This document shows positions 10,201 through 34,116 of a DNA stretch of 34,116 bases, one piece after another. The translations under genes were made by a program, and so were the position numbers. How positions within the stretch are numbered: position 1 is the first letter of the stretch; each line of letters opens with the position of its first letter. The notes under the pieces are model-generated. The model was not told where the DNA came from. It saw only the letters and a list, made by a program, of their open reading frames with translations, and did not search any database. Source of the stretch: Emiliania huxleyi CCMP1516 (taxonomy: Eukaryota); NCBI RefSeq assembly GCF_000372725.1, contig NW_005201191.1, positions 293,882-327,997 of the forward strand. Reading direction: 5' to 3'.

Positions 10201-12302
10201 TGCCTGAAGGCCTCGACGCACTCGGCGTGGCCCTTCTCCTTGGCCCACTGCAGCGCCGTCATGCCGCTCGGGGTGCGCGCCGCGGTGTCTGCGCCCGCCC
10301 GCAGCAAGCGCCGCACGACGGCGGGGTGGTTGAAGAGGGCGGCGAGCATCAGCGCGGTGCTGCCGTCGCTCGTCTGCAGGTTGACATCAGCGCCGTGCTG
10401 CAGCAACAGGTCGACCACCCGCTCGTGGCCGCTGTAGGCGGCGAGCATCAGTGCGGTGTAGCCGCCGCTGTCTTGCAGGTTGACCTCAGCGCCGCGCCGT
10501 ATCAGCAAGTCGACCACCCGCTCGTGGCCGTAGAAGGCGGCATCAATAAGCGCGGTGGCGCCATCGCTGCACTGGTGGTTGATCTCCGCGCCGTGCTGCA
10601 GCAGCAACTCGACCACCCACTCGTGGCCATAGTGGGCGGCGCCCATCAGCAGCGTGAGGCCGCTCACATCATCTCTCTCGTACGTCGCGTCGGCCCGCCC
10701 GCCGCTGTCGAGCCACGCCAGCACCGCCTCCTCCTCGCCATGCTCAGCCGCTGCCGCGACCGCATCGGGGGCTGCCGCGGCACCGCTCGACGCCTGCTCC
10801 GCCGCCACCGCTGGAGATAGCGGATTCGCGACTCTCGATCCAGCCGAGGAAGCGCCGCCGGAGGAAGCGCCGCCGGAGGAAGCGCCGCCTGCGCCCGCGC
10901 CGCCGGCTGCCGCCGCCGTGGGCCGTCCCGCCACGACCGACTCCTTGACGTGCTGCCTGAAGGCCTCGACGCACTCGGCGTAGCCCTTCTCCTTGGCAAC
11001 CTGCAGCGCCGTCATGCCGCTCGGGGTGCGCGCCGCCGTGTCTGCGCCCGCCCGCAGCAAGCGCCGCACGACGGCGGGGTGGTTGAAGAGGGCGGCGTCC
11101 ATCAGCGCGGTGTAGCCGTCGCTGTCCATCAGGTTGACCTTAGCGCCGTGCCGCAGCAGCAGCTCGACCAGCCGCTCGTGGCCGTAGCGGGCGGCGCCCA
11201 TCAGTAGCGTGAGGCCGCTCGCCCCACTTCCCTCGTACGTCGCGTCGGCCCGCCCGCCGCCCTCGAGCCACGCCAGCACCGCCTCCTCGTCGCCTCGCCC
11301 AACCGCTGCCACGACCGCATCGGGGGCTGCCGCGACACCGCTCGACGCCTGCTCCGCCGCCACCGCTGGAGATAGCGTCTTCGCGACTCTCGATCCAGCC
11401 GAGGAAGCGCCGCCGGAGGAAGCGCCGCCTGCGCCTTCAGAGCCGGCTGCCGCCGCAATGGGCCGTCCCGCCACGACCGCCTCCTTGACGTGCTGCCTGA
11501 AGGCCTCGACGCACTCGACGTGGCCCTTCTCCTTGGCCCAATGCAGCGCCGTCCTGCCGTTCGCACTGCGCGCCGCCGTGTCTGCGCCCGCCCGCAGCAA
11601 GCGCCGCACGACAGCGGGGCGGTTGAGGCTGGCGGCGCACATCAGGGCGGTGAAGCCGTCGCTGTCCTGCAACTTGATCTCCGCGCCGTGCCGTATCAGC
11701 AAATCGACCACCCGCTCGTGGCCTTGGTGGGCGGCGCACATCAGCGCGGTGAAGCCCGAGCGGCTCTGCAGGTTGAGCTCCGCGCCACGCCGAATCAGCA
11801 AGTCGACCACACGCTCCTGGCCGTTGAGGGCGGCGCCCATGAGCGCGGTGCCGCCATTGCTGCTCTGCAGGTTGATCTCGGCGCCGCGCTGCAGCAGCAG
11901 CTCGATCACCCGCTCGTGGCCGTGGAGGGCGGCGCTCCTCAGCAGCGTCATGCCGCTCACGCCGCCTCTCTCGTACGTCGCGTCGACCCGCCCGCCACTG
12001 TCAAGCCACGCCAGCACCGCCTCCTCGTCGCCTCGCTCAGACGCTGCCACGACCGCATCGGGGGCTGCCACGACACCGCTCGACGCCTGCTCCGCCGCCG
12101 CCACTGGTCGCAACCTCTCCGGCCGCACCCGCACGCTCTCGCCGCTTCCCTCGAGCGCCACCACGTACCGGTCGCCCTCAAAGCTCCGCGCCACGCCCCG
12201 CTTCCCGTTTAGCTCGGGACGGGAAGAGAGCCCGCCAAGCTCGACGCGCTGCCCAAGCAGCGGCGCGTCGGTAGGCGACGTGCCACACATCGACTCAGGC
12301 AT
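7284..12302 (-). CDS. Intronless multidomain protein: small N-terminal beta-rich module, four ankyrin-repeat blocks, Ala/Glu-rich coiled coil, IRAK/Pelle-like Ser/Thr kinase, C3HC4 RING, RGG tail (~1672 aa)
   Basis: First ATG at 12302. Ankyrin consensus G.TALM.AA..GHE.VV.LL...GA.IN is repeated many times. Kinase motifs: VPLDELIAATDGF..RKVGEGGFGRVY, FAVK, HRDVSAGNILL, ADVGLAR, GKPGYMD, TDGFALG. RING: CDLC...CGHALYCETC...CPAC. Confidence 0.9.
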   Translation of the reverse strand: MPESMCGTSPTDAPLLGQRVELGGLSSRPELNGKRGVARSFEGDRYVVALEGSGESVRVRPERLRPVAAAEQASSGVVAAPDAVVAASERGDEEAVLAWLDSGGRVDATYERGGVSGMTLLRSAALHGHERVIELLLQRGAEINLQSSNGGTALMGAALNGQERVVDLLIRRGAELNLQSRSGFTALMCAAHQGHERVVDLLIRHGAEIKLQDSDGFTALMCAASLNRPAVVRRLLRAGADTAARSANGRTALHWAKEKGHVECVEAFRQHVKEAVVAGRPIAAAAGSEGAGGASSGGASSAGSRVAKTLSPAVAAEQASSGVAAAPDAVVAAVGRGDEEAVLAWLEGGGRADATYEGSGASGLTLLMGAARYGHERLVELLLRHGAKVNLMDSDGYTALMDAALFNHPAVVRRLLRAGADTAARTPSGMTALQVAKEKGYAECVEAFRQHVKESVVAGRPTAAAAGGAGAGGASSGGASSGGASSAGSRVANPLSPAVAAEQASSGAAAAPDAVAAAAEHGEEEAVLAWLDSGGRADATYERDDVSGLTLLMGAAHYGHEWVVELLLQHGAEINHQCSDGATALIDAAFYGHERVVDLLIRRGAEVNLQDSGGYTALMLAAYSGHERVVDLLLQHGADVNLQTSDGSTALMLAALFNHPAVVRRLLRAGADTAARTPSGMTALQWAKEKGHAECVEAFRQHVKESVVAGRPTAAAAGGAGAGGASSGGSAGSRVAKTPSPAVAAEQASSGAAAVSEAVVQAVERGEEEAVLAWLDAGGRVNATYEGIEVSGLTLLMGAANHGHERVVELLIRRGAEINQQNSNGNTALMGAATNGHERVVELLLQRGAEINLQSSSGGTALIFAAGQGHERVVDLLIRHGAEVNLQNSVGLTALMCAASSGHERVVELLIRRGAEVNLQSSDSGTALMCAALQGHERVVDLLLRHGAEIDLQDSVGLTALMYASMSGHSAVVRRLLRAGADTAAYGKTALQWAKEMGHAECVRALEEHSSTAAEAERETAVAESAEQAAEAAREAAAAAEAAEARDAAEAALREAVEACGRGDAGLEALRAAINANVDAANGSEALRAARQLRDDMAERRTREARALKRQRQKEEKAAARQAAEEARAADEARAAEAAAEARAAEEAEAASRAREEAEARAREEAAREREEARMRAEAEAAAAAEAAAEAAEAAAEAAAVEAAVAAVAAAEAQEAAAAEAVAAAAAAAAASAAASVAALAAAAAPPAAVPLDELIAATDGFAEARKVGEGGFGRVYRCDALPSLPRVAYGFAVKTALVGVGAQGLAELQSEVRTLSAACHPSLLPLLGVCLAPARACLVYPLCRGGSLEDRLYRTPAALQRLRMLGFETPPPPLSSAARLRVLRDAASALHYLHTRSPMILHRDVSAGNILLDERGNGYLADVGLARAAEATAGSNGLVSHLSTQRIFGKPGYMDSIIMHDNQASQLTDGFALGITLLVSLTGRGAVGLLNACDDALEEPDTAKEGIAAADAGWSAAQAEELVRLVVGLAYERKKKRMPLAEALPRLEALVEAAGEVEETAGAEERLCDLCYDAPRSVRFACGHALYCETCAPRVLERDSKCPACRQPALPIAAIGRLVAAQATFVYQPPSRTVPQAQPVGATAAVGRRGGRGGRGRGGRGGRGAGRGGSA

Positions 12303-17730: not shown

Positions 17731-19080
17731 ATGAGAGGCGCCATCGGCCCAACCCAGCTCGCCGACCTGGCTCGGGGCGACCTGGCCTCGCTGCGCGCCC
17801 TCCTCTCCGGGCGGCGGACGCGCGGCACGTCGCTCGCGGCCCAGCTCGACGAGCGGCACGACACCGACAAGCAGGACACGCTGCTCACCTGGGCCGCTCG
17901 TCACGGGCAGGCCGAGGCGGCGCGGCTGCTGCTCGAGGGCGGCGCGAGCGTCGGGGTGACGACTGGCGGCGGCGGCGCTTCAGCGCTGTACATCGCGTGC
18001 CAGGAGGGCCAGCTTGAGTGCGTCCGGCTGCTCCTCGAGGCTGGCGCGGCGGTCAACCAAGCCGAGGGGCAAGGCGCCACGCCGCTGTTCGCCGCGTGCC
18101 AGGAAGGCCACGTCCAGTGCGCCCGGCTGCTTCTTGAGGCTGGCGCAGCGGTGAACCAAGCCGACGGTGATGGCTTCACGCCGCTGTACGTTGCGTGCCA
18201 GGAGGGCCAGCTCGAGTGCGCCCAGCTGCTGCGCGACGCTGGCGCTAACATCAACCAGGCCGATGAGGAAGGTACCACGCCGCTGTACATCGCGTGCCAG
18301 CACGGCCACCTCGAGTGCGTTCGGCTTCTTCTCGAGGCGGGCGCAGCGGTAAGCCAAGCCCTGAATGGCGGCGCCACGCCGCTGTACATCGCGTGCCGCT
18401 TTGGCCATCTCGAGGTCGCCAAGCTTCTTCTCGAGGCGGGCGCAGCGGTAAGCCAAGCCCTGAATGGCGGCGCCACGCCGCTGTACATCGCGTGCCGCTT
18501 TGGCCATCTCGAGGTCGCCAAGCTTCTTCTCGAGGCGGGCGCGGCGATCGACCAAGCCCGCAACGACGGCTCCACGCCGCTGCTCATAGCATGCTTCAAG
18601 GGCCACCTCGAGGTCGCCAAGCTCCTCTCCTCCTACGGCGCCTCCCGCGCCGCTACGCCCTTCGGCACGCCCGAGGAGGCCGCAACCGAAGATGGCCACG
18701 CCGACCTCGCCGCCTGGCTGGTCGCCAGCCGCGGCTGGACGCCGCTCGCGCACCTTGAGACCCTCACCGCCACCCGCGCCACCTCCCTCCTGCGCGGCGG
18801 CGCAAGCTTGCACGAGGGCGAGCCGACGCCGCTGCAGCGCGCCGCGGGCGGCGCGGGCGAGGCGGCGGCGCTGATCCGGCGGGCGGCGGCGCCGTGGTCG
18901 CCGGCAAGCCACTCGCTCTTCCCCGCGGCGGCCCGCGCGCGGGCGGCGCTCCTCGTCCGCTCGATCTACGAGATCCACGAGCGGTACCACCTCGACTCGG
19001 CTGGAGCCACGAACGGCATCGCGGCGCTCGACTTTGGCCACTGCGTCTTGGGCTTCGCCATCGCGCGCGAGACGCAGTAG
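17731..19080 (+). CDS. Intronless ankyrin-repeat protein (~8 repeats) with a C-terminal domain of unknown function (449 aa)
   Basis: First ATG in the ORF is at 17731. G.TPLYIAC..GHLE...LLLEAGA.V repeats. Exact 99-bp duplication at 18325-18522. Confidence 0.9.
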   Translation: MRGAIGPTQLADLARGDLASLRALLSGRRTRGTSLAAQLDERHDTDKQDTLLTWAARHGQAEAARLLLEGGASVGVTTGGGGASALYIACQEGQLECVRLLLEAGAAVNQAEGQGATPLFAACQEGHVQCARLLLEAGAAVNQADGDGFTPLYVACQEGQLECAQLLRDAGANINQADEEGTTPLYIACQHGHLECVRLLLEAGAAVSQALNGGATPLYIACRFGHLEVAKLLLEAGAAVSQALNGGATPLYIACRFGHLEVAKLLLEAGAAIDQARNDGSTPLLIACFKGHLEVAKLLSSYGASRAATPFGTPEEAATEDGHADLAAWLVASRGWTPLAHLETLTATRATSLLRGGASLHEGEPTPLQRAAGGAGEAAALIRRAAAPWSPASHSLFPAAARARAALLVRSIYEIHERYHLDSAGATNGIAALDFGHCVLGFAIARETQ

Positions 19081-19313: not shown

Positions 19314-21715
19314 TCACAAGTTCACAGACACCTCGAGCAGGGCCGGGTGGTTGGTCCAGAGCCCCCAGCCGTCTGGGAACGGCCTCGTCGGCGCGGCCGC
19401 GTTGTACGCGTCAAAGTCGTCCGCGAGGGCCCTCAGCTCGCGCTGGAAGTCGGCATAGCTCGCGCGCAGCCCCTCCTCCCCCGCCACACCGCCAAACAGG
19501 TGCGACCAGTCATCTTCGGAGCCGGGCGCGGCGAGCAGCTTTGGCATCGGCATGAAGGTGAAGGAGGTGAGGATGGCCTGTGTGATGGCCGACTGCTTGT
19601 TGCCGCGCGCCTCGCCCACCGGCCAGCGCCACGCACAGAAGCGGACGTCCTTCGCGTACACGGCGAGGTGGCCCGCCTGCTCGTGCCCCGCGGTCACACG
19701 GTCACACACCGTCGCGATGAGGCAGGTGCAGAGCTCCGCCAGCTGCGGAGGCGGCAGGCCGCGCACGGCGACCACCTCGTGCGTCCCGCCCGCGCTGCCC
19801 GCCCCCGGCTGAGCGACGAGCGGCGCCGTGGTGGAGAGCGAGCGCAGCAGCCCCTCCGCAAAGCCGGTCATCTCCGCGTCGGCGGCGAGGCTTGCGGCGG
19901 TCGGGTACACGGCCCGGAGCGAGGCCTCAACGTACCCCTTGAAGACGCGGTACAGCCGCCCCGCCTGTTTGGGGTGGGGGGAGGGGGGGGGGTAGAGGCG
20001 GGCCGGGAGCATCGGTGACAGCAGAGGCAGGGACGGCTCAGGCGGAAACGCTGTCGGAAAGCCTGCCGCTCGTGCCTCGGAAGTGTCTCGGAAGTGTCTC
20101 GGAAGTGTCTAGGAAAAGGCTGTCGGACGCGCCTGCCGCTCGTACGGCGTGTCGACGCCGCCGGCGCGTCGCGCCTCGAGGTAGCGCTCGCGGTCGACGA
20201 TGTGCATGAGCCGCTCGAAGGGCGACGCGCCGGAGAGCTCGGCCGCGGCGCCGCCTGGCTGCATCGCCGCGGCGCACACGAGGGACGGCGCTGCGTCCCA
20301 CGCGAGCTGGAGGCCCTCGCCGGTGAAGGCGAGAGTGCGTGACACCATCGAGCGCTCGGCGACGAGGAGGTCGTGCGCACGGTCGTTGACGGTGATGGTC
20401 TGGTGCAGGAAGGGCGTGAGGAGCCGCCGAAGCGGGTGCGAGGCGGACAGCGTCTCGCGAAGAGCCACGGCCGCGGCCGTCGAGAGGTCGAGGTGGAGCT
20501 CGAAGAGGTGGTCGACAACCTGCTCAATGTCCACGCGGTGCAGGAGACCCCCCCTCGTCGGTGTGTTTCCCCCCCCCCCCCCCTCCCTCCCTCCTACATC
20601 GAGGGCAGACGGGGTAGACTGGGTGGACCGGCGGGCAACTGTGGTAGACGAGTCGACCGCAGTCTACCGCAGTGGACGGTGCAAGGACGCCAGTCTACCG
20701 GCAGATCCGCGGGACCGCCGCGAGGAGCCGCACGAGCCAGCTCAAGGAGGAGGTCGGCCGCCATCAGGTCTTCGATGATGGCGCAGTGCATATCGCACCA
20801 CATCTCGGTCACCCGTCGGCGCTACCTGGGCGGGCCTCGGCTGGGTCTCGGCTAGGCTACGTCGCGGCGCCGTCACGAGCGTGAAGACGGAGGAGCGCAC
20901 GCAGAACTTCGCGTACTCCCACGCCGCGGGGTCGCCGTCCGGGTAGAAGGTGCGCGTCGTCAGCTGGCGCGCCTCGAAGCCGCGCGCGGCGCCGCTCGGC
21001 CCGACGCGTCCCGCGGCGCTGCCGGCGGGCTCGCACCGCTCGATGCGTAGCACGCGCCAGGATTCGTCAAAGTACGCGTCTGCGCCTATACTGGTCGACG
21101 ACTCGGCGTTGACGTCATGCGTTGAGCAGCGCCGCATCATCGGCGCACGTCTAGGAAGTGTCTAGGAAGTGTCTAGGAAGTGTCTAGGAAGTGTCTCCGC
21201 GCCGTAGCTGGCGTAGCCCGGCCGCACCGGCAGCGCGGCGAGCGCGTTCGTCCGGACAGCGAACACGCGCCGCCCGCCCTCCTCGAGCGCCTCCACCCTG
21301 TGCGCGCCCATGCCGTGCCGGCAGAAGCGCGTGAGCGCCTCGTCCGAGAGCTTGTCGCCCCACTCCGGCGCGTGCGGCGGCGAGTGCGGCGGGTAGACGT
21401 CGCCGACGTGCGTCGCGACGTACGCCTCGGGGTCCTCGCCTAGGAAGTGTCTAGGAAGTGTCTAGGAAGTGTCTAGGAAGGACGTACGCCTCGGGGTCCT
21501 CGCCTACAGGAAGGTTCTTGGAAAGGTCCAGGCAAGGTTCCAGGAAAGGAAGGTGCGCCTCGGGGTCCTCGCCGGGCGCAAAGGGCGAGAAGTCGTCCGT
21601 GATCGGCAAGAGGTGCAGGTAGGCGTTACTCAGCTGCGTCGCCCGCAGAGCGAGCAGCGGCTCGGGGAACTCGTCCTCGTCGATGGGCGGCACGCGCACG
21701 CGGGGGGCCCCTCGC
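19314..21715 (-). other. Lipoxygenase catalytic domain (C-terminal part of the fusion)
   Basis: WEYAKFCVRSS...VVDHLFELHL (two His ligands), LRETLSASHPLRRLLTPF..TITVNDRA..LL, DAEM..F, VTAGHEQAG (third His), MPKL, FQRELRAL, and a C-terminal LEVSVNL* (carboxylate ligand position). Confidence 0.9.
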
Positions 21716-24700
21716 CTGTTGGGAGGGGTGGGGAGGGGTGAAGAGGGGTGGGGAGGGGTGGGGAGGGGTGGGGAGGGATGAAGAGGAATGGGGAGGTGTG
21801 GGGAGGTGTGGGGAGGTGCGGGGAGGTGCGGGGAGGTGTGGGGAGGGGTGGCGAGGAATGGGGAGGGATGGGGAGGTGTGGGGAGGGATGGCGAGGAATG
21901 GGGAGGGGTGGGGAGAGGTGGGGAGAGGTGGGGAGAGGTGGGGAGAGATAGGCCCCTCGCCAGGAGTGCATCGGCCGGCGGAGCAAGCCGCGCCGCCGCC
22001 GCAGCTTCGCGGCCTGCATGCTCTGCGCGGTGGGCCGGCGGCGGGCGGCGTGCAGCGCCTGCGATTCGACGACCAGCTCGAGGTCAGAGAGATGTCTAGG
22101 AGGTGTCTAGGAGGTGTCTAGGAGGTGTCGAGGAGGTGTCTAGGAGGTGTCTAGGAGGTCCAGGAGGTGTCTAGGAGGTGTCCAGGAGGTGGTCTAGGAG
22201 GTGTCTAGGAGGTGTCTAGGAGGTGTCTAGGAGGTGGTCTAGGAGGTGTCTAGGAGGTGTCCAGGAGGTGTCCAGGAGGTGTCCAGGAGGTGTCTAGGAG
22301 GTGTCTAGGAGGTGTCTAGGAGGTGTCTAGGAGGTGTCTAGGAGGTGTCCAGGAGGTGTCCAGGAGGTGTTTACGAGGTGGTCTAGGAGGTGTCTAGGAG
22401 GTGTCTAGGAGGTGTCTAGGAGGTGTCTAGGAGGTGTCTAGGAGGTGTCCAGGAGGCGTCTAGGAGGTGTCCAGGAGGTGTCCAGGAGGTGTCCAGGAGG
22501 TGTCCAGGAGGTGTCCAGGAGGTGTCCATGAGGTGTCTAGGAGGTGTCTAGGAGGTGTCCAGGAGGTGTCCAGGAGGTGTCCAGGAGGTGTCTAGGAGGT
22601 GTCTAGGAGGTGTCCAGGAGGTGTCTAGGAGGTGTCCAGGAGGTGTCTAGGAGGTGTCCAGGAGGTGTCTAGGAGGTGTCTAGGAGGTGTCCAGGAGGTG
22701 TCTAGGAGGTGTCCAGGAGGTGTCTAGGAGGTGTCCAGGAGGTGTCCAGGAGGTGGTCTAGGAGGTTGCGCCCGCCACTCGAGCAGGAGGATCTTCTCGA
22801 ACAGGTCGTTGTGCGACAGCCCCATCGCGCTTGTGAGCACGAGGATCGCGAGCACCAGAGGCAGCAGCAGCTGCAGCGCGCCTGCGGCACACGCCACGGC
22901 CTCGTCGTGGACATGCCAAGGAGCACCAGAGGCAGCCGAAGCGCGCCGGCGGCGAGGAGGAGGAGGCCGTTGGCTCCGACCAGCGCGGGCACCAGCAGCA
23001 GCAGAAAGAGCGCCAGCGCACGCGCCCCCCAAACGCCGCATCGTGGGCAAGACGTGATCGGAGGGGCGGTGTCGTCCGTCGACGCGGGCGGGGCATGAGC
23101 TACCAAGGGCATGCCCGACTCCCACCTACACACGCAGCGTCGACCGGTGTGGACATGTGCATGTGCATGTGCATGTTGTGCATGTCATGTGCATGTGTGT
23201 GGGGGTGCTCCAGGGGCACACACGGATGCTCGCCTTGAGAAGAGCGGCCAGCACACGGGCCTCTCCGCGGGCCGCGCGAGCTGCCTGGAGGTGCGGAGAG
23301 GTGGGGAGGAGTGGGGAGGAGTGGGGAGAGGTGGGGAGGTGTGGGGAGGAGTGGGGAGAAGTGGGGAGGTGTGGGGAGGAGTGGGGAGAGGTGGGGAGGT
23401 GTGGGGAGGAGTGGGGAGAAGTGGGGAGGTGTGGGGAGGAGTGGGGAGAAGTGGCGAGATGTGGGGAGATGTGGGGAGATGTGGGGGAGATGTGTGTGTG
23501 TGGGGGGGGGAGATGGAGAAGTGTGGAGAAGTGGGGAGGAGTGGGGAGGAGTGGGGAGATGTGGGGAGATGTGGGGAGATGTGGGGAGAGGTGGGGAGAG
23601 GTGCGCCAGCTCCACGCCGAGGCCAGCTCGAGCGCCACGAGAGGCATCACCTCCTTGGCCACCCGCTCGCCCCCGCAGCGGTGGTTCTCGACCCAGTCGC
23701 CCGCCCCGAAGGGCGTGAAGCCCTCCAGCGAGCCATCCCCTCCGGACACGGTGGCGGCCTGAGGCGAGGGAAGGTAAGGCAGGGTACACCTCTCCACACA
23801 CACCAAGGTGGCGGGGCAAGGGGCCAGGGCAGCCCTCGCGACTCCGCGTCTGGACGACAGGAGCCCCGCACGGCAGTCAATGTGCAAGGCCCGGTGCGCG
23901 TGGGTGAGCGGGTGTGTGAGGTGGGCGACCTCCCAGCGGCCCGGCCAGAACACGTCGGGCCTCTCGTGCCGGCTGCCGCGGCACGTGGCGTACAGGAACG
24001 CCGCCAGGAAGTCGCCCCTTGGGATGGCGACGCGATCGCCGCCGCCGCCGCCGTCCGCCGCCGCCGCTCGCGCTCCCTCGGAGGCGAAGGCCGACGCGGG
24101 GATGTCGACGGTGGCCGCACCGAAGACGAACTGCGGGGAGAGAGGGGGAGGTGTGGGGGAGGTGTGGGGGAGATGTGGGGGAGGTGTGGGGGAGGTGTGG
24201 GGGAGGTGTGGGGGAGGTGTGGGGGAGGTGTGGGGGAGGTGTGGGGGAGGTGTGGGGGAGGTGTGAGCGCGGCGCCGGAGTGGCCACCTGCACGCCGTTG
24301 AAGTAGCGCAGCGTCTCGTGTGCAAGTGCGCGGGCGGCCGCCCCTGGCGCACCGCCGTGCTCCTGCGGGCGAGGCACGCCGAGAGAGGTGGGGGGAGAGA
24401 TGTGCGAGAGATGGGCGAGAGATGTGGGAGAGATACGGGGAGAGGTGGGGAGAGATGGGGAGAGGTGGGGAGAGGTGGGGAGAGCGTGGGGAGAGGTGGG
24501 GAGAGGTGGGGAGAGATACGGGGAGAGGTGGGGAGAGATGGGGAGAGACGGGGAGAGGTGGGGAGAGGTGGGGAGAGATGGGAGAGGTGGGAGANNNNNN
24601 NNNNNNNNNNNNNNNNNNNNNNNNNNNNNNNNNNNNNNNNNNNNNNNNNNNNNNNNNNNNNNNNNNNNNNNNNNNNNNNNNNNNNNNNNNNNNNAAGTTT

Positions 24701-27700
24701 AAAAGATGCCCGAGGCCGGGGTCGTAGGCGTATGCGGAGGAATCCAGAAGCTTTGAAAAATTAGAAAGAAGGAGGCCCCCAGACTATTTGTGGGGGGGGA
24801 TGGGGAGCGTTCGGAGAGGTGGGGAGAGGTGGGGAGGGGTGGGGAGAGGTGGGGAGGGATGGGGAGAGGTCATCGTGGGGGAGGCCGCATCCAAAGGTGC
24901 GCACCCTCCGTTGAAGAGGTGGTACCAGGAAGTGTCTAGGAGTCTAGGAAGTGTCTAGGAGGTGTCTAGGAGGTGTCTAGGAAGTGTCTAGGAGGTGTCT
25001 AGGAAGTGTCTAGGAGGTGTCTAGGAGGTGTCTAGGAAGTGTCTAGGAAGTGTCTAGGAAGTGTCTAGGAGGTGTCTAGGAAGTGTCTAGGAAGCGCGCG
25101 CCCTCCGTTGAAGACGTGGTACAGGTCGGCCAGCAGTGCCGTGTCGGGGAGGCGCGTGGGGCCGAGCTCACGCAGGTACGACGCCAGCAGCGAGGTCGGC
25201 TCGCCCTCCTCCACGGTGTCCGCCCCCGCCGCCCGCGCGTGGCTGAGCGCCCGCGCCATGAAGCCGAAGATCCGCTCGTGCCCGAGCCGTGCCGCGCCGC
25301 CCGCCGCGCCAAAGCGCAGCGATCGCGCGATGTCGTCGAACGTGGAGAAGTTTGCGTCGAGCGCGCGGCCCAACTGCACGGCCTCGCCGCGGCAGACCGG
25401 GAGGCCGAAGAAGGCCTCGCAGGTCAGATGCGCGACCAGCGTGAAGGCCTCCTCAGCGAGGGCCACCGGCTCGCCGCCTCGCACGCGCTCCGCCACGCCC
25501 CGCAGCTCGCGCCGCACCACCGCCCGAACCGCGTCGAGGACGAGCCCGGGCCGCATCGCTGCGTGGAAGACCTGCTTGCGCGCCCGGTGCTCGGCGCCGT
25601 CGAGGGGGGGGAGGCCGTACTCGACCGCCGCGAGCGCAGCCCCACGGCCGCCCGCGGGGCAGCAGCCGCCGCGCGTCGAGGCGGGCGGAGGCGGGTCCTT
25701 GGCGGTCCCCCAGACAGTCTGGACGAGGCCGAGGGGCGTGAGAGGCCACTTTGTGGGGTCGCGCTCGCAGTAGGCGCCGTCGTAGAAGACTGCCAGCCCC
25801 TCGTGCCCCCAGACGCCCCAGACGCCGGTCGGCGAGACGGCCGCGTACCGCCGCGACGGCATGCTCCGGGCGACGGCGAGCTGCGCGGCGGCATTGTCGA
25901 AGGGGAAGGAGAGGAGGGAGGCGCGGTGCGGCGGCGGGGGCGCAGCCGAGCCAGACACCAGCCGGCGCAGCGTCGTCAGCGTCTCGCGCGCGCGGTGTGC
26001 GGCGTGGCCGCCTCGCGCCAGGACGAGGCCGAGGAGGAGGAGCAAGGGAGGCAGCAGCAACAGTCCGGCGACCAGCGCAGGGGCGGCAAGCAAAGCGCCT
26101 CCGAGGACCGCCAGCGCCCGCCTCCAGAGGCGTGGCGTCGCATCGCCGCTCTCCCACGCCGCTCGAAGCGGGCAGAGCTCGGGCGGCGCCCCGCCAAACG
26201 CGGCATCGGCCGGTGGGGGCGCCGGGACGCCTGGAGGAAGCGGCCGGGGCCACGCCGGAAGCAGCGCCGAGTAGAGTCCGGGCAGTCCCTCGTACTCGTA
26301 CCGCTTGTCCGAGTTGTGCACGAGCTGGTAGAGCCAGCGCTGCGCCGCCGCGCCGCCGGCGCCGCCCACCCTCGCGTCGTCCGTCAGCATCGTGTGCCGG
26401 AAGAGGAGCCTGGGGGGGATCTGGGGGAGATCTGGGGGAGATCTGGGGGAGATCTGGGGGAGATCTGGGGGAGATCTGGGGGAGAGATGTGTGGTGGAAG
26501 AGGAGCCTGCGATCGCCCAGCAGCGAGCGGCACGCCTCGCCGCGCAGCCGCACCTCGCCCGCGAACCGGATGGGACGTGTCAGGGAAGTGTCGTGGACAT
26601 GTCCAGGACAGGTGTGCTGCAGCCGCACCTCGCCCGCGAACCGGAGGGCCGACGGGTCGAGGCCGGGCACGAGAAAGACGCGGTACAGCACGCGAGCCGC
26701 CGACTCGGCGGCGGCGCCTCGCAGCGCGGCTCGCAGCGCGTCGAGCGACTCCGCGCCGTCTGCCAGGTGCCGCGCGACGCGCGCGGCGAGCAGCGGGTTC
26801 GGCTGCAGCACGAGGGCGAACGGGAAGGCTGCCTCGCCCGCGGGGCTGCCGTCCTGCGCGTGGCTGGCGAGGTCGGACAGGCCCGTCACGCCGAAGAGAG
26901 CGCCCGCTGCGCCGGCGGGGCAGCCGGGGATGGGCGGCTTGTCGAGCAGCGCGTTGCGGAGCGCCCAGATGAAGCGGCTCCCCGTGAGGCCGGCACGCAC
27001 GTCGACGAGGCCCGCCTGCGGAGGTGTGGGGAGGCGTGGGGGGATGTGGCGAGATCGCGAGGATGGTTGACGAGTCGGCGAGCCACCTGCCGCCAGTCCT
27101 TGGTGCCGCTCCGACCCACACTGGCGCCCGACGACGGCACAGGGATGTGCGTGCAGAGCGGCAGCTCGAGCAAGTTGGCGCTCGCCTGCGCCTCGAGGAT
27201 GTTGTGCAGCGCGACGAAGTTGGCGGACGCCACGCCATCGCGAAAGCACTTGACCGCCGCGCCGGCGACGCGCGCGCCCGGCTCCGGAGCCACTGCCCAC
27301 GAGAGCCGGACCAAGGCTTCGTCGCTGCCCGAAGAGAAGATGCCCGAGTACTGCTCGCCGACCCACGGCTCCCACTCGAGCGACGCCCGCACGCAGACGC
27401 CTTGCCGGTGGACGCCTGATGAATCGTTCACTACTGTTAATGAGGTATTAATCAAGGTCTCGCCGCGCCCTGCCGGTGGACGCCTTTGTAGTGGCCGCGG
27501 GGCGAGAGGTCCGCCCGGAGGCGAAGGGCCGTCTCCACCGGCATCGCAATGATGCGGAGCGCCTGGCCGACAAAGCCTGGCCGCGGGTCGCTCGACTGGT
27601 CGGCAGTCAGGCCCTTCCACAGTCTGCACGCCTTCTCGATGCGACTCTGCGCCTCCGGAAGGAGCTCTTGCCGCGAGGCGTACGGAAAGGGACGGCGGAG

Positions 27701-28054
27701 GAGAAGCCGCCAGACACCGTCGAGCACCACGGCAGGTCCGTTGACTGCAGGGAGGACTGGCCAGCGCCAGAGCGAGAGTCCAACCAGCGGGTAGTTGAAA
27801 AGAGCAACCGCAACGCCCTCGAGAAGGCCGTAGACCACAAAGAGAGGGATGAGCGCGCTTATCGGGAGGACAGCGATGACAATCGCCAGCCAAGCGAGCA
27901 GGCCGAACGGCGAAGCCGACGCGCACTCAGACTGCAGCTCTGAATCATCCTCGGCGATGAGAGAGGAGGCCCGACGCGCCCGAGCGATGTACTTCTGCGT
28001 CGGACGTGCGACTGCGGGTCTTGAGTTCGGCAATAGCTGGCTTTGAGCGGTCAT
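19314..28054 (-). CDS. Trifunctional fusion: catalase-related heme domain + CYP152/CYP74-like cytochrome P450 + lipoxygenase (~1,750 aa). Exons 28054-27484, 27415-27087, 27015-26629, 26553-26507, 26409-~25102, [gap], 24362-24288, 24130-23930, 23758-23607, 23284-23234, 23125-22947, 22881-22772, 22058-21961, 21715-21573, 21439-21203, 21085-20871, 20519-20133, 19964-19314
   Basis: Hand-spliced at GC/GT-AG sites. Phases are consistent and there is no stop codon at either inter-domain junction. Family motifs for all three domains appear in order. The exon(s) around the N gap are unresolved. Confidence 0.78.
22093..22764. repeat. Intronic 11-bp minisatellite (TGTC(T/C)AGGAGG)n
   Basis: About 60 tandem units. 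Related arrays at 20078-20115, 21149-21195, 21441-21480 and 24927-25093. Confidence 0.95.
23291..23600. repeat. Intronic G-rich 10-bp minisatellite (GTGGGGAGAG-like)
   Basis: Tandem 10-mers. Similar arrays at 21721-21950, 24140-24265, 24385-24594 and 26411-26490. Confidence 0.9.
23771..23865 (-). mobile_element. Diverged copy of the (TTACC)-tailed short element, inside intron 23929-23759
   Basis: Aligns by eye with 5917-6005 across its length (CTCCACACACAC..GGTGG.GGGGCAAGGGG...CCCTCGCG.CTCC.CGTCT..ACGACAGGAGCC). Confidence 0.65.
24595..24694. other. Assembly gap (100 N) inside the P450 domain
   Basis: Run of N. The flanking 24695-24945 looks like low-quality contig-end sequence. Confidence 0.99.
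26390..27500 (-). other. Catalase-related (mini-catalase fold) domain (N-terminal part of the fusion)
   Basis: KGVHRQGVCVRA (distal His), YSGIF..G...LVRLS, GAAVKCF and ANFVAL occur in the order expected for the catalase beta-barrel. A proximal Tyr could not be assigned with confidence. Confidence 0.72.
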
Positions 28055-28290: not shown

Positions 28291-29115
28291 ATGCTCTACA
28301 CGACGCTGCTCTACGGCTTCGCTCCAATGAGGCCGAACGCCTGCAGGAGGCTGAGCAGTCAGCCGTCGACTGCGGTGCGGCCTTTGGCGAGCGTGGTCAT
28401 CCCATCGCGATGGCAGCGCGTGCACGACTGCGAGCGGCCGGCAAAGTACCGGGAGGTGCTTACGGAAGAGGACTGCGCGATATACGAGCTCGAGCTAGCC
28501 GCCGGCCGCACGCCCGCCTCTGTCGTCGACGGCGTGCTCGAGCGGCGCCGCCGGTGGGTGCGGCTCAACAGGCCGCGCTGGCGCCGCAAGTACTCCGAAA
28601 TCGTGCGCGGGATCAGAGACATGGACGACCTGCGCGAGGTGTGCGCCGCCGCCGCTGCGCGCAACCGCTCCGTCGTCGCGCTGAGCATCTACTCGCAGCC
28701 CGAGCGATCGAACCTGCGCGTCGCCGCCAAGTTCCGGCGGCTCGCCCTCAAGTACCAGCGCGACGCCGCGTGCTGCGAGGCGGAGGCGAGGAGCGCGCTC
28801 GCCCTGGCGCTGGGCGCGGAGGCGCCCTCGGTGACACTCTTTGACGCCGAGCGCGTCACCCGCGTCGCAAGCTGCCCGTCCTGGCCGGCCGCCTTCAAAC
28901 GGCTCGAGGCGAGGCTGCTCGGATGCGTGGCGGCGATGCAGAAGCGGCGCGCCTTCCTGCGACGGCTCGTGGACAAGCGGCCCAACCTCGTCCGGCTCGC
29001 CGCCTCGCTGGGCGACCCGACCGCCGCGCCGCAGCACGAGGACGCGCCGGCGACATCGTCCACCTCGGGCGGACTCGTGCGGAGGGACCCGCCCAAGATT
29101 CAGCTGTTGGGGTAG
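28291..29115 (+). CDS. Thioredoxin-fold protein lacking CxxC, with a possible organelle-targeting N-terminus (274 aa)
   Basis: First ATG at 28291. IRDMDDLREVC...VVALSIYSQPERSNLRVAAKFRRLALKY...LALALGAEAPSVTLFD follows thioredoxin topology, including the cis-Pro region, but has ERSN in place of CxxC. Confidence 0.55.
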   Translation: MLYTTLLYGFAPMRPNACRRLSSQPSTAVRPLASVVIPSRWQRVHDCERPAKYREVLTEEDCAIYELELAAGRTPASVVDGVLERRRRWVRLNRPRWRRKYSEIVRGIRDMDDLREVCAAAAARNRSVVALSIYSQPERSNLRVAAKFRRLALKYQRDAACCEAEARSALALALGAEAPSVTLFDAERVTRVASCPSWPAAFKRLEARLLGCVAAMQKRRAFLRRLVDKRPNLVRLAASLGDPTAAPQHEDAPATSSTSGGLVRRDPPKIQLLG

Positions 29116-29832: not shown

Positions 29833-32800
29833 TTTTTCTTTTTTTTTTTGAGAGCGCCTTCGTTGTTAATAGTACAAACCCAATGGTCCTCTGCGAGCGG
29901 TCCTTCGTTGCAGTCGCACACACGCACACGCCGCGCCGCACCGCGCGCCCGCCCACCGCCCCGCCCAGGCGGGAAAGAGATGAGGAGATGGGACAGCGAA
30001 GGGGGAAGCACAAGCACGTATGGGAGGGTTCAGTAATGCGCCACGCTGCCCGGCGTCTCTCACTTTCCGGGACAGCCCCGCCCTTGTGAGGCAGGAAAGT
30101 GACGGCTACCCCGTACGCCCTGGTGCTGCTACCCCGACGCCGACCGCCCATTCTCCCCTCCTCGTTCCCCCCTCGAATGCTCCGGACCCCGACAAGCCGC
30201 CCGACGTTGGGCCTCCGCCCCGCACGCTCCCGCCCCTCTGCCCCTCACACACACCCAGGCCCGACATGCACATACAAGACAAACCCGGCGTCCTGCTCTC
30301 AAAAGAAAAGAAAAAATGGGAAGGAGGAGACCAGCGGGGGAGACTCCCCGCCTATGCAACACCCCAGAGAGGGGCTGCCATCGCCGAAGCTGTGCCTAAG
30401 CATAACTCCCAAACCCGCAGCGGCCCGGGGGGCCTTGGGGGCAGCCTGCCGGACCGCTGTTGCACGGGGCCAAGCACCAGGAGATGAGAGTAGTTGATGG
30501 ATCGGGCTGTCGACCGTGCCTCCCCTCTATACGTCAGAGTGAGACCTACGCCGCGCCGGGTAAGGAGCGCGCCCGGTCCTCGACGGAGCCGCGCGCCCCA
30601 AACGACCCAGGCGGCGAGTAGTCGTCCTCGAACCTTCGACTCGTAGTCGCCCGTGGTTAGCGCCCCTCCCCCCTCGCCCGTCCCTATTCATACTGCTCCC
30701 GAGGCGCCCGCGGCATCTCGCCGCCCATCTTCGGCCACGCGTTGTAGTCGAAGATGGCGGCGTTGCGCCTCGCGACGATGGCCGAGTGCACTTGCAGGAA
30801 GCGTTTGCGCTCGCTACTGACCCGCCATCGTTCGCTGTCGGAGGACGCCTTAGCGGCCTTGATGTCGAAGTTGGTGTTGAACCACGTCGCCGCCTCGTGC
30901 CCGATGCCGCCACGCGTGCTCGCCGCCCATGTCATAAAGTCGCAGTTTTTGGCGTCGCACGCCGCTGCCTTGGCCTTCCGCTTCGTCGCCTCGGCGTAGT
31001 CGGTGGCTAGGCGCTTGCCGCTCGCCAGCGGGCGCAGCTTGTCATGGTGCACCGCGGTGACGCACGTGCCGTCGTACACCACGGCGCGCGCCGACTCTGC
31101 ATAGTTGCCGAAGACGCCGTCGCCCCGCTGGTACGGGTTGGTGTCCGGATCGTGTGCCCGCGTCGGGTCCCTGCAGCCGAGCCTCACCTCCATGACCTTT
31201 GCCGAGGCGCCGAAGGCGCGGGCGACGTTCGTGACGTGGGTGTTGAGGGATGTGTGCCCCGTGGCCAGCCAGCCGCCGTAGTTGCACCCATCCCAGTGCG
31301 TGCCGTTGAGGTGCTCGAAGAGCGACAGCGTGCGCGGCACTCGCGCGTCGCCGATGTCGCACGGGACGCATCCCGTTAGCCTTGTGCGGTGGTAGATGCA
31401 CACCGAGTTAGGGCCCACGCCGACGCAGCGCGTGGCGAGGGTGATGGCGCCCTTGGGGTGGTTGAGGTAGCCCTGCGCCTCGTGGAGCCACGCCTTGTCG
31501 CTCAGCTCGACGTCCTTGTGGACGACGTCGATGCCGAGCACCGCGCCCGCCCCGAGTTGCTTCGTCGAGCGGAAGTGCGCTCGCGTCGCCGGGTGCACCT
31601 TCGGGTCGTTGACGATGGCGTCGAACATGTCTTGCTGCAGGGCGTTGTTGGCGACGTGCTGGAAGTGGCGCCCCGAGACCTGTTCGATCCCCTTGTAGTC
31701 GACGGAGCCGTCGTCCGCGACGATCTTGTTGCGGAGGGACCTCCAGTCGTCGGCGTCACTGTCCGGGCCGCTCGCGAAGCCCGCCGAATTGCTCACAAGC
31801 TCTTCGATGAACGCAATTGCCTCCGCTAGCATTGGCACGCCGGACGTGGCCCACTCGTTCGGGGGCGGCACCAATGGGGACACGTCCTCGAGCCGCCGCA
31901 GCAGATAGAGGACGTCGAGCACGCGCCCGGTCGAAGCGGCCGGCGCGATGAGTCGTGGGTGCGCCCAGCCGAAGCCGCCATTCCGCTGCGAGAGGTGCAT
32001 CGCCTCCTCGCACCGCCGCTCCGTCGGGCCGGCGGGGTTGGCGTCGTGCTGCACGTCGCGGATCTCAGAGGGGCTGGTGGCGGTGAGCGTGCGGAAGAGC
32101 TGCGCTTGCGTCTCGCCAGCGTACTCGAGCGGCTCGCGCGTGACCGAGGGCTCGCAACCACGGGCGACGTGGTTGAGCGCGGTTGACGCCTTGAGGGTGA
32201 AGCGTCCGAGGAGCTCGGCCGTCTGCCGCCCGAGCGCCGGCGTGAGCTTCTCGAGCACCCTCAGCTTGATCTCGTGCGCCCGCACCTTGTCCATGGCGAT
32301 GCCGGTGCGCGCTGCCGCTTCGTAGCCCACGCCGACGCCGTTGACTCGGAGCGCGTCGCGCAACACCGTCGGCCACTTGCGCTTTCCCTCGTGCATCTGC
32401 GACGGGAAGAGCTTGATGAAGCGCGCTACGTCAAGCTCCGTGTCCTGCCACTTCCGCGACTGCAGGATCTTGAACTTGCGCGCGTTCGCGGAGAGGTTGA
32501 GCTCTCGCTCCGAGAGCTTGACGTAGGCGGTGCACCACTCCGCCGCCCGTTCGATGTCGGCGGCCTCGCGGACGACGGTCGGCGCGTGGGCGTCGTCGGC
32601 GATGCACTTCGGCACAACCTCCGGGTACCTCTCCTTGAGCGGTTTAAGGACGAGGAAGCAGACGGCGATGCAGAAGCTCAGCATGGAGAAGAGGCCGCCT
32701 TGCGTGAAGCCGAGGCGGACGGCGAAGCGGTCCAGGCTGCCGTCGACGACTGTCAGCACCTCGCCGTGGTGGGTCCGCAGGAAGGCGAGGTCGTCGAGCG

Positions 32801-34116
32801 CTGCCTCTGCCGCCCGGACCACCTCGTCTGCGTCCTTGATGGCGAGCCGCGCCCGCGTCGCGTCGTCGAGCTGCTTGACCCACTCGATCAGCTTCAGGGT
32901 CGCTCGCGCCGACGAGTCGAGCAGGCTCGTCGAGTAGGCGTTGGAGTAGTCGAGGGCGATGATGATGGCGCGGCTTTCGAGCGCAGGTGAGTCGCAGTAC
33001 AGCTGCAGTGCCGTGGCGACGCCCTCGCCGCCGCTGGGCAGGCCGACGGCCATCTGACCGAAGCAGAGGAGCACGGGGCCGATGGTCTTCGCCGCCCAGC
33101 TCGCGCGCGCGCGCCACGCCTCCTTGAAGAGGGCCTCGCCCATGCCGATGGGTCGCGTGCCGGCGAGCATCGACGGCGTCCCGTCATCGAGGCGTTTGAG
33201 CAGCTGGGTCGAGAGCACCGTCGCCGCGATGCGTGTGATGCAGTCGGGGATGGCAAAGCGCTCGATCGCCTCGAACAGCACGACGAAGCCGCCCTCGAGC
33301 TCCTCAAAGAAGGGCTTGAGGTGCTCGGTGCGTAGGCCCGTGCCTGCGGGCTGCTTCTTGTAGCGCGCCGCCGCGAGGCGGGGCCGCCACTTCTCGGCGA
33401 GCTCCTTGACTCGCGCCTCGTCCCGGAGGTCCTCCCCGAGGCGGTGCATCGCGTCCTCCGGCTGGTTCATCCCGCGCTCCGCCCGCCAGCGGAGCAACGT
33501 GGCGCGTTCTGCCGACGACACGTCGGCGCAGAGGAGCAGGCGCAGCTGGGCGTACGCCAGGTCGCCGGGCGGGACGGACGGGACGTCCATCATCCGCGAC
33601 ATGGCCTGTCTGAGCCGTCGCTTGCGCGCCGCGTCTTGGATGAACTCGACCAGCTCCTCGCTCCGCTCCCTCTCCGACTTGCCTTGCTGCTTCGCGTGCG
33701 ACGCCATCGTCGGCAGCTTGTCCTCCCACTTGTGCGCGTTCCACAGCGACTCGAACTCGCCTGCGAAGAATCGGCACGCCCGCTCTTGTAGTGCCGCTTC
33801 CGGGGTGACGCCTGTCGGCGGCTTCGCGAGGAGCCAGCGCGGCATCGAGAGCAACAGGAGCCAGCGTTCCGGGCGGGCCAGGCCGCGACCGCGCGCCCCG
33901 GTGAGGGCGTCGATCACTGCCTGCATGACGGGTTGCACAGCTTGCGCGTCCCTCACGCCGAGGGAGTCCAGCGAGTTGCCACGCGTGGAAAGCAGCGCCA
34001 GGGAGTCGGGCGGCACCTGGTCTCGCAGGAAAGCGAGGGCGGTGGCGACCGGTGTCGACACGTCCCCGTCGTCCGTGCCGTCGCCCGTCGGGGCGCTGTC
34101 GCGGGCGAGGCGCGTG
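29833..34116 (-). mobile_element. RLE-type non-LTR retrotransposon including a putative ~850-nt 3' UTR ending in poly(A)
   Basis: Uninterrupted RT/RLE ORF. The minus strand reads TATTAACAACGAAGGCGCTCTC-A11GAAAAA at 29871-29833. The 3' boundary is inferred. Confidence 0.6.
30684..34115 (-). CDS. Reverse transcriptase + Cys/His motif + restriction-like endonuclease polyprotein of a non-LTR retrotransposon (CRE-like), 5'-partial
   Basis: The frame is open to the window edge. RT motifs: RPIGMGE, QMAVGLPSGGE, ALDYSNAY, GFTQGG, CIADD, LSANARK, NGGFG. C-terminal HWDGC, RGDG...VYDGTCV...EATKR...STRGGIG fit an RLE-type end. Confidence 0.9.
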   Translation of the reverse strand, partial: TRLARDSAPTGDGTDDGDVSTPVATALAFLRDQVPPDSLALLSTRGNSLDSLGVRDAQAVQPVMQAVIDALTGARGRGLARPERWLLLLSMPRWLLAKPPTGVTPEAALQERACRFFAGEFESLWNAHKWEDKLPTMASHAKQQGKSERERSEELVEFIQDAARKRRLRQAMSRMMDVPSVPPGDLAYAQLRLLLCADVSSAERATLLRWRAERGMNQPEDAMHRLGEDLRDEARVKELAEKWRPRLAAARYKKQPAGTGLRTEHLKPFFEELEGGFVVLFEAIERFAIPDCITRIAATVLSTQLLKRLDDGTPSMLAGTRPIGMGEALFKEAWRARASWAAKTIGPVLLCFGQMAVGLPSGGEGVATALQLYCDSPALESRAIIIALDYSNAYSTSLLDSSARATLKLIEWVKQLDDATRARLAIKDADEVVRAAEAALDDLAFLRTHHGEVLTVVDGSLDRFAVRLGFTQGGLFSMLSFCIAVCFLVLKPLKERYPEVVPKCIADDAHAPTVVREAADIERAAEWCTAYVKLSERELNLSANARKFKILQSRKWQDTELDVARFIKLFPSQMHEGKRKWPTVLRDALRVNGVGVGYEAAARTGIAMDKVRAHEIKLRVLEKLTPALGRQTAELLGRFTLKASTALNHVARGCEPSVTREPLEYAGETQAQLFRTLTATSPSEIRDVQHDANPAGPTERRCEEAMHLSQRNGGFGWAHPRLIAPAASTGRVLDVLYLLRRLEDVSPLVPPPNEWATSGVPMLAEAIAFIEELVSNSAGFASGPDSDADDWRSLRNKIVADDGSVDYKGIEQVSGRHFQHVANNALQQDMFDAIVNDPKVHPATRAHFRSTKQLGAGAVLGIDVVHKDVELSDKAWLHEAQGYLNHPKGAITLATRCVGVGPNSVCIYHRTRLTGCVPCDIGDARVPRTLSLFEHLNGTHWDGCNYGGWLATGHTSLNTHVTNVARAFGASAKVMEVRLGCRDPTRAHDPDTNPYQRGDGVFGNYAESARAVVYDGTCVTAVHHDKLRPLASGKRLATDYAEATKRKAKAAACDAKNCDFMTWAASTRGGIGHEAATWFNTNFDIKAAKASSDSERWRVSSERKRFLQVHSAIVARRNAAIFDYNAWPKMGGEMPRAPREQYE

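Follow-up and report, generated by a model that had tools for sequence, protein, structure and literature searches.

A predicted catalase-fold domain, a cytochrome P450 and a lipoxygenase joined in one reading frame in Emiliania huxleyi, with a predicted role in oxylipin synthesis

The fusion gene and its exons

We consider a stretch of 34,116 nucleotides of Emiliania huxleyi CCMP1516 (contig NW_005201191.1, positions 293,882 to 327,997; this whole stretch is called the window, and all coordinates below refer to it), in which a gene on the minus strand runs from an ATG at 28054 to a TGA at 19314. An earlier note, written from the letters of the DNA, had joined this region by phase-consistent splicing into a single polypeptide with a catalase-related domain, a cytochrome P450 (P450) and a lipoxygenase (LOX), free of stops until 19314. 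Our model, built after translation of the minus strand in three frames, agrees with that reading: it splices in phase and is free of stops, and the splice junctions given in the note are right. The locus holds one real, expressed and conserved three-domain gene with a single reading frame. Of its 18 exons, 17 are visible and one lies within an assembly gap; the product has about 1,747 residues, and the visible exons translate without a stop into 880 residues before and 832 residues after the 100-N gap. From the N-terminus, the order is a hydrophobic segment, the catalase-fold domain, a hydrophobic segment, the P450, a hydrophobic segment and the LOX. The features of the gene are the following.

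19314..28054, minus strand: whole fusion gene, encoding about 1,747 residues; 17 of the 18 exons are visible and one is in the gap
27484..28054, minus strand: exon 1, Met1, hydrophobic segment of residues 44-87, start of the predicted catalase-fold domain (P0001, P0003, P0010, P0011, P0016)
27087..27415, minus strand: exon 2, Val192-His193 (predicted distal His), Arg227/Ser229, Lys246, Asn256, His280
26629..27015, minus strand: exon 3, predicted catalase-fold barrel
26507..26553, minus strand: exon 4
25102..26409, minus strand: exon 5, end of the predicted catalase fold (His450, candidate Tyr491), hydrophobic residues 543-579, P450 as far as the I-helix F-N879-G-G
24595..24694, no strand: assembly gap, concealing one P450 exon whose 34 residues are known from five stored proteins
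24288..24362, minus strand: exon 7, P450 K-helix E931-T-L-R
23930..24130, minus strand: exon 8, P450
23607..23758, minus strand: exon 9, haem loop of the P450 (H-R-C-G-G-E with Cys1035), which aligns with the CYP152 loop
23234..23284, minus strand: exon 10, P450 C-terminus
22947..23125, minus strand: exon 11, P450 end, linker and start of the hydrophobic segment of residues 1104-1158
22772..22881, minus strand: exon 12, end of that hydrophobic segment and start of the LOX region
21961..22058, minus strand: exon 13, LOX
21573..21715, minus strand: exon 14, LOX
21203..21439, minus strand: exon 15, LOX
20871..21085, minus strand: exon 16, LOX; followed by the intron 20870-20520, through which P0003 and P0016 read
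20133..20519, minus strand: exon 17, predicted LOX iron ligands His1406 and His1411, and Ala1450
19314..19964, minus strand: exon 18, LOX His1625, Gln1627, C-terminal Leu1747 and stop

All 15 visible introns end in AG, and they start with GC in 11 cases and with GT in four. This agrees with the species, in which GC donors make up 56% of 241 curated junctions (PMC4028052; here and throughout, what is taken from sources with PMC numbers refers to excerpts of their text). Many introns of the gene consist of tandem repeats of 10-11 bases. Several of them (for example 27483-27416, 26628-26554 and 21572-21440) carry at their start or end a near copy of the adjoining exon sequence, and these copies therefore provide cryptic splice sites; at one such intron the stored protein P0013 has 23 additional residues. 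The segment 24783-24695 beside the gap was considered as an exon and rejected (in-frame stop, 49% GC, absent from the stored proteins).

Stored proteins across the linkers and the gap

Database proteins, free of introns and 97-99% identical to the model, span both linkers and the gap. The linker between the first domain and the P450 lies wholly within exon 5, and this exon, compared with longer proteins, matches two of 7,988 candidates: P0001 (98% identical) and P0002 (44%). The P0001 cluster has 37 members, 15 of them listed, and nine of those 15 are used in the junction tests. P0003, an open reading frame (ORF) from an MMETSP transcript and a member of this cluster, and P0016 agree with the model from Met1 as far as residue 1402, through both linkers, while P0013 agrees with it from residue 430 to the last residue, 1747; with these three proteins, the joining of the three domains in one frame that had been proposed is established. 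At least one near-identical stored protein crosses 16 of the 17 splice junctions tested. The 17th, between exons 8 and 9, is spliced in P0003 but with one residue extra, and the last two junctions are supported by P0013 only.

Across the gap, five stored proteins hold the same 34 residues between FNGG and EHGG (P0001 differs at one), and the window contains no match to them (best tblastn E 0.48). Because five proteins share this stretch, the gap conceals one P450 exon and is not a join of two loci. The flanks, for which an origin at different loci had been raised as a possibility, are thus bridged, and the gap lies inside the P450.

The stored proteins also document incomplete splicing. P0003 and P0016 run into the intron after exon 16 and end before the LOX iron ligands; in P0011, P0013 and P0016, intron 8 is retained and stays in frame; P0001 and P0011 stop short.

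The N-terminal domain

The first domain covers approximately residues 135-495 and has no sequence match in Pfam, NCBIfam or the PDB; a PDB search with P0010 gave nothing relevant. Its catalase fold is predicted from a structure model based on 104 sequences (pLDDT 88). In a fold search of 48,161 representative chains, all six chains with Z of at least 5 have the catalase fold: 3e4w (10.3), the coral allene oxide synthase cAOS 1u5u (9.7), two catalases (9.7 and 9.6), chanoclavine synthase (9.5) and 3dy5 (8.9), the next chain reaching 4.6. The superposition on 3e4w aligns 196 residues with a root-mean-square deviation (rmsd) of 4.4. Foldseek returns no match at E <=0.001, although all the rows it lists are nonetheless of the catalase fold, and the atlas cluster at rank 16 (score 0.93) has PF00199 in 37% of its members. 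The catalase fold that the earlier note had placed at the N-terminus is thereby upheld by the predicted model.

This domain belongs to a large family. A full HMMER scan with P0001 gives 352 proteins at E <=0.001, and most of the 150 matches listed cover the first domain, in proteins that stand alone and have about 300-450 residues; among 39 stand-alone relatives scanned, none has a catalase Pfam match. The family alignment of 103 rows has the distal His in 98, Arg in 102 and Asn in 98 rows, and His193, Arg227, Lys246, Asn256 and His450 are kept in 97-102 of them. The assignment of His193 and Asn256 to the distal site is made by motif rather than by residue-level superposition.

The corresponding residues of coral cAOS are T66-H67, N137 and Y353 (PMC5617202). 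Here the residue before the distal His is Val, and in P0026 and P0031 it is Ile; among 135 family rows having this His it is Ile in 108, Val in 13 and Thr in 6. No Tyr is conserved across the family C-termini, and 13 of 128 members end no more than 12 residues after the last conserved His. An E-G-x3-4-Y motif is present in all three fused sequences that cover the tail of the domain. The alignment to 1u5u (rmsd 5.2, 200 residues) stops about seven residues before Tyr353 and extrapolates, from range ends only, to about Tyr491. The 104-sequence family profile has 0 matches among PDB chains at E up to 10, and hhalign of the family against a bacterial cAOS-type half (locus L007, below) gives a probability of 0.14%. 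Because it has Val-His instead of Thr-His and lacks a family-wide proximal Tyr, the first domain, of predicted catalase fold, is most likely not a member of the cAOS/cHPL group, to which it had at first been assigned as an allene oxide synthase or hydroperoxide lyase. Among the ORFs of loci L001-L008 and the proteins P0032-P0175, the bacterial members end right after a conserved F-x-His motif, many others end in Cys-Pro-Phe/Leu, and the fused proteins carry Cys-Pro-Leu after the catalase-fold domain.

The P450 and the lipoxygenase

The P450 domain covers approximately residues 604-1085. Its top PDB match is the CYP152 peroxygenase 6fyj (E 6e-8 to 5e-14), in an alignment that extends over most of the domain and takes in the haem loop, and both the haem loop HRCGGE (Cys1035) and the K-helix ExxR (as ETLR) are present. 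PF00067 is detected in P0002 (E 4.2e-8), while Pfam fails to detect the P450 in P0001, P0003 and P0013; in the atlas, the P450 clusters score 0.97, are mostly bacterial, and have PF00067 in 29 of 30 matches. The acid-alcohol pair of the I-helix is absent (N-G-G-Y-A here, N-G-C-Y-A in the second species described below), in line with the peroxide-type P450 that had been claimed. The P450 appears to be related to CYP152 rather than of the CYP74 or Ppo type; CYP152 ranks first in the PDB searches, and no CYP74 chain is among the 57 PDB matches of P0002 (E up to 1). When the I-helix F-N-G-G-Y-A is aligned with I-L-R-P-I-V-A of 6fyj, Asn replaces the CYP152 Arg in both species. This Arg holds the substrate carboxylate in CYP152 (PMC11842817), and an axial Asn is reported near the haem iron in plant AOS, in the prostacyclin synthase PGIS and in fungal LDS/EAS (PMC13049297). 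The domain scores 22-38 bits with the NCBIfam model CypC (NF053744), for which the cut-off is 600. With the haem Cys and ExxR in place, the acid-alcohol pair missing, Asn for Arg and no reductase, the P450 may act as a hydroperoxide isomerase or lyase; since there is no reductase domain and a LOX adjoins, hydroperoxide conversion would be the simplest reading.

The LOX domain covers approximately residues 1160-1747, and the C-terminal LOX that had been expected is recovered by Pfam, with PF00305 narrowly above its cut-off (26.0-26.2 bits against 23.6); when 15 separate exon pieces are scanned, the LOX exon is the sole match. In P0002 the score is 20.4 bits, under the cut-off. The best PDB matches are animal LOXs (E about 1e-8). 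Three His and the C-terminal residue, expected as metal ligands, are present as His1406, His1411, His1625 and a C-terminal Leu; the H-x4-H is aligned to ALOX12, and the His residues are kept in P0002, P0022 and P0023. At the fifth-ligand position (four residues after the third His, where Asn, His or Ser is expected) there is Gly; a two-residue deletion relative to porcine 12-LOX puts Gln1627 in the fifth-ligand register, where P0022 has His. A model of the second-species P450-LOX is poor (pLDDT 42 from seven sequences) and unfit for judging this ligand. The three His, the C-terminal residue and the Gln in the fifth-ligand loop suggest that the LOX is active as a polyunsaturated fatty acid (PUFA) dioxygenase. 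Ala1450 aligns with an Ala of ALOX12 that we take to be the S/R stereo-control site. P0022 and P0023 belong to the same divergent LOX subfamily and stand alone; they have hydrophobic stretches at the N-terminus and a shortened H-x-(Q/H)-x-G ligand loop.

Besides the three domains, the chain has the hydrophobic stretches at residues 44-87, 543-579 and 1104-1158, by which, judging from sequence, the protein may be anchored in a membrane. If they form hairpins, all three domains would lie on one membrane face.

Relatives in other genomes

A second species (the P0002 cluster, about 43-48% identical) has the C-terminal half of the catalase domain, the P450 and the LOX in one frame, with the P450 and LOX motifs together in six of six members and the catalase-domain half in five of six; it keeps the middle hydrophobic stretch. 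Three members lie on contigs of 9.6-10.7 kb, which exceed the expected mRNA length and are therefore probably intron-free DNA. Among further fragments of 58-71% identity, possibly from more than one organism, P0026, P0031 and P0177-P0179 cover the N-terminal half of the first domain, and P0027 spans the catalase-P450 join. With the LOX part as query against proteins of 769-2449 residues, three of 7,986 candidates match: P0002 and two LOXs with N-terminal hydrophobic stretches and no P450 match. No relatives were found in metagenomes, scanned with P0002 and P0104, or in a scan of viral sequences.

When bacterial and archaeal genomes are searched with an alignment of six sequences, nine loci result, from which 70 ORFs were scanned. 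At two of the nine, a stand-alone relative adjoins a fatty-acid dioxygenase gene. In a Halioglobus metagenome-assembled genome (L007:5914-9252) it stands tail to tail with a cAOS-LOX fusion (3dy5, E 2.7e-110), and in a cyanobacterial one (L006:3475-9866) it adjoins an alpha-dioxygenase-like gene (4kvj, E 7e-117). This neighbourhood suggests that some members of the family are linked to fatty-acid hydroperoxide pathways, and L006 is possibly an oxylipin cluster. On the opposite side, the L006 relative is flanked by genes for an old-yellow-enzyme-type reductase and a RoxA-like cytochrome c. The L007 fusion is cut at its N-terminus by an N gap and has an apparent Gly at the position of the coral cAOS proximal Tyr. 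In a FastTree tree, the four fused or fragment rows form one group apart from the bacterial loci, with weak deep support and most rows lacking taxon labels.

Neighbouring genes in the window

Further ORFs noted in the window are the following.

4232-5170, plus strand: 312 codons; no Pfam match
7284-12302, minus strand: intron-free ORF of 1,672 codons; many ankyrin repeats, a protein kinase domain and a RING finger
17731-19080, plus strand: ankyrin-repeat ORF of 449 codons; runs towards the 3' end of the fusion gene, whose stop lies about 230 bases away
28291-29115, plus strand: 274 codons; no Pfam match; diverges from the start of the fusion gene
30684-33926, minus strand: 1,080 codons; no Pfam, NCBIfam or PDB match

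By eye, the last of these resembles what we take to be a reverse transcriptase/endonuclease of a non-long-terminal-repeat retroelement.

Discussion

Fusions of a fatty-acid dioxygenase with an enzyme that converts its product are known with two domains: corals have cAOS-LOX and cHPL-LOX (PMC5793058), cyanobacteria join a catalase to a LOX or to a dioxygenase (PMC11719350), and fungi join a dioxygenase to a P450 (PMC13049297, PMC10813956). A three-domain fusion, a P450-LOX fusion or a CYP152-LOX fusion was not found in the searched literature, which covered few subscription journals; the excerpt of PMC10864609 contains no such fusion, and those of PMC8511707 and PMC5712309 contain nothing on this gene. 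Within that literature, the statement that no three-domain case has been described holds.

Like the coral and cyanobacterial enzymes (for example Plexaura homomalla cAOS-8R-LOX, 3dy5/1u5u), the gene joins an N-terminal predicted catalase fold and a C-terminal LOX in one chain, and it keeps the distal His and Asn of coral cAOS (fold Z 8.9-9.7). Unlike them, it has a whole P450 and hydrophobic stretches in between, its catalase-fold domain belongs to a different family (Val-His, an uncertain proximal Tyr and no match by sequence), and its LOX is divergent and has no PLAT domain detected by Pfam. With the fungal PpoA, linoleate diol synthase, DOX-AOS and DOX-EAS it shares a fatty-acid dioxygenase fused to a reductase-free P450 that is proposed to use the hydroperoxide, and an Asn in the I-helix region; it differs in that the dioxygenase is a non-haem LOX, C-terminal to the P450, in that the P450 is CYP152-related, and in the third domain. 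CYP152A1, OleT and 6fyj give the best sequence match of the P450, have a similar haem loop and lack the acid-alcohol pair, but here the carboxylate-binding Arg is Asn, the score is far under the family cut-off, and the protein is fused and eukaryotic. The proposed chemistry is that of the CYP74 clan (plant AOS/HPL/DES/EAS, brown-algal CYP5164), and the I-helix F-N resembles F-N321 of plant AOS (PMC13049297); unlike these enzymes, which are known as separate proteins, the P450 here is fused and matches CYP152 first.

We propose that a single polypeptide, likely membrane-anchored, would contain a LOX that makes a PUFA hydroperoxide and a neighbouring P450 that converts it to an oxylipin without a reductase, and we put the probability of this reading at about 0.55. 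In such a chain, the LOX would add oxygen to the fatty acid, the adjacent P450 would turn the hydroperoxide into the oxylipin, and the products, made without partner enzymes, may be signal or defence molecules. The first domain is most likely peroxide-reacting, of an unnamed family and not a classical allene oxide synthase; it might be a second peroxide-reacting site handling a side stream (excess hydroperoxide or the P450 product), which is the weakest step of the scheme.

Several observations weigh against this proposal. No single stored protein spans model residues 1-1747; retained-intron forms are common, none of the five long proteins of the same-species cluster is the perfectly spliced form, and two of the three long proteins that reach the end of exon 16 continue into the intron and lack the LOX iron His. 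In the second species, none of six ORFs includes the distal-His half of the catalase fold, the LOX has Ile at the Ala1450 position, and the third hydrophobic stretch is absent. The family placement of the P450 is unsettled: a RiPP P450 model of NCBIfam scores about equal to CYP152, both far under cut-off. P0104, the nearest stand-alone P450, has Ile at the Asn site, and the axial Asn is dispensable in several of the enzymes that carry it (PMC13049297). Seven of the nine bacterial loci have no dioxygenase neighbour, the count of two in nine has no chance baseline, and the bacterial relatives are, in the tree, distant from the fused group.

It is possible, if unlikely, that the first domain itself is a product-forming allene oxide synthase or hydroperoxide lyase, so that the LOX would feed two parallel or sequential haem converters. 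The 1u5u fold match ties with the catalases at Z 9.7, Tyr491 is a candidate by range extrapolation, the three fused sequences covering the tail all have E-G-x3-4-Y, and catalase-LOX fusions are a known pattern (PMC5793058, PMC11719350). Against this stand the Val-His, with Thr in only 6 of 135 family rows having the His, and the lack of a sequence match to cAOS. Moreover, the L007 relative adjoins a gene with its own cAOS-type domain, and therefore a different job is suggested for it.

We give less credit to a P450 working like CYP152/OleT, in which peroxide (H2O2 or the LOX hydroperoxide) would drive hydroxylation or decarboxylation of a second fatty acid while the catalase-fold domain buffers peroxide. 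True catalases have Val before the distal His, and a hydrophobic residue precedes it here as well; CYP152 enzymes are also the best sequence matches over most of the P450, haem loop included. Such a P450, however, would be expected to keep the carboxylate-holding Arg (PMC11842817), which is Asn in both species, and to come nearer to the CypC cut-off.

Similarly improbable is a lesser enzyme, either because the first domain lacks haem and is a lipid-binding or scaffolding module, or because the gene mostly yields shortened intron-retention forms, the working enzyme being the P450-LOX pair or less. The missing family-wide proximal Tyr and the 13 of 128 members that end so soon after the last conserved His would fit a loss of haem, whereas both this protein and the family as a whole retain the distal His, Arg, Ser and Asn. 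That 0/5 of the long stored proteins are perfectly spliced would fit the shortened forms, but intron read-through is general in E. huxleyi, where reads span 478 of 535 introns (PMC4028052), and need not be regulated, and the second species has an unbroken frame. Finally, an assembly artefact joining two loci is hardly credible: there is a 100-N gap inside the gene with a 49% GC flank of no exon match, yet this gap lies inside the P450 rather than between domains, five stored proteins span it, and the second species has the same domain order.

Returning to the proposed LOX-to-P450 conversion, a bolder form of it, which we offer as tentative, is that an oxylipin pathway of three steps is complete on a single membrane-bound chain of this bloom-forming alga, with two undescribed kinds of catalyst. 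One would be a P450 that descends from CYP152 and has been adapted to fatty-acid hydroperoxides by a change from Arg to Asn. The other would be a catalase-fold domain, the first of its large unnamed family to be given a place in function, which binds haem although the standard Thr-His/Tyr is missing and performs a novel hydroperoxide reaction.

Lipoxygenase genes of E. huxleyi, among which this locus may or may not be, are reported to be induced by UV or early viral infection (PMC11126961, PMC12489294), and the enzymes that convert LOX hydroperoxides in microalgae are largely unidentified, as reported for diatoms (PMC10864609). Automated callers would split the gene on account of its GC-AG introns, its tandem-repeat introns and the assembly gap, and it may have been overlooked for this reason. 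The fusion extends the logic of a dioxygenase plus converter with a pairing and a domain family absent from the searched literature. It is a directly expressible candidate for the conversion of LOX hydroperoxides in microalgae and suggests a route outside CYP74 and coral cAOS, and it is a first pointer to the function of a catalase-fold family that comprises at least 100 sequences and has no name in Pfam or NCBIfam.

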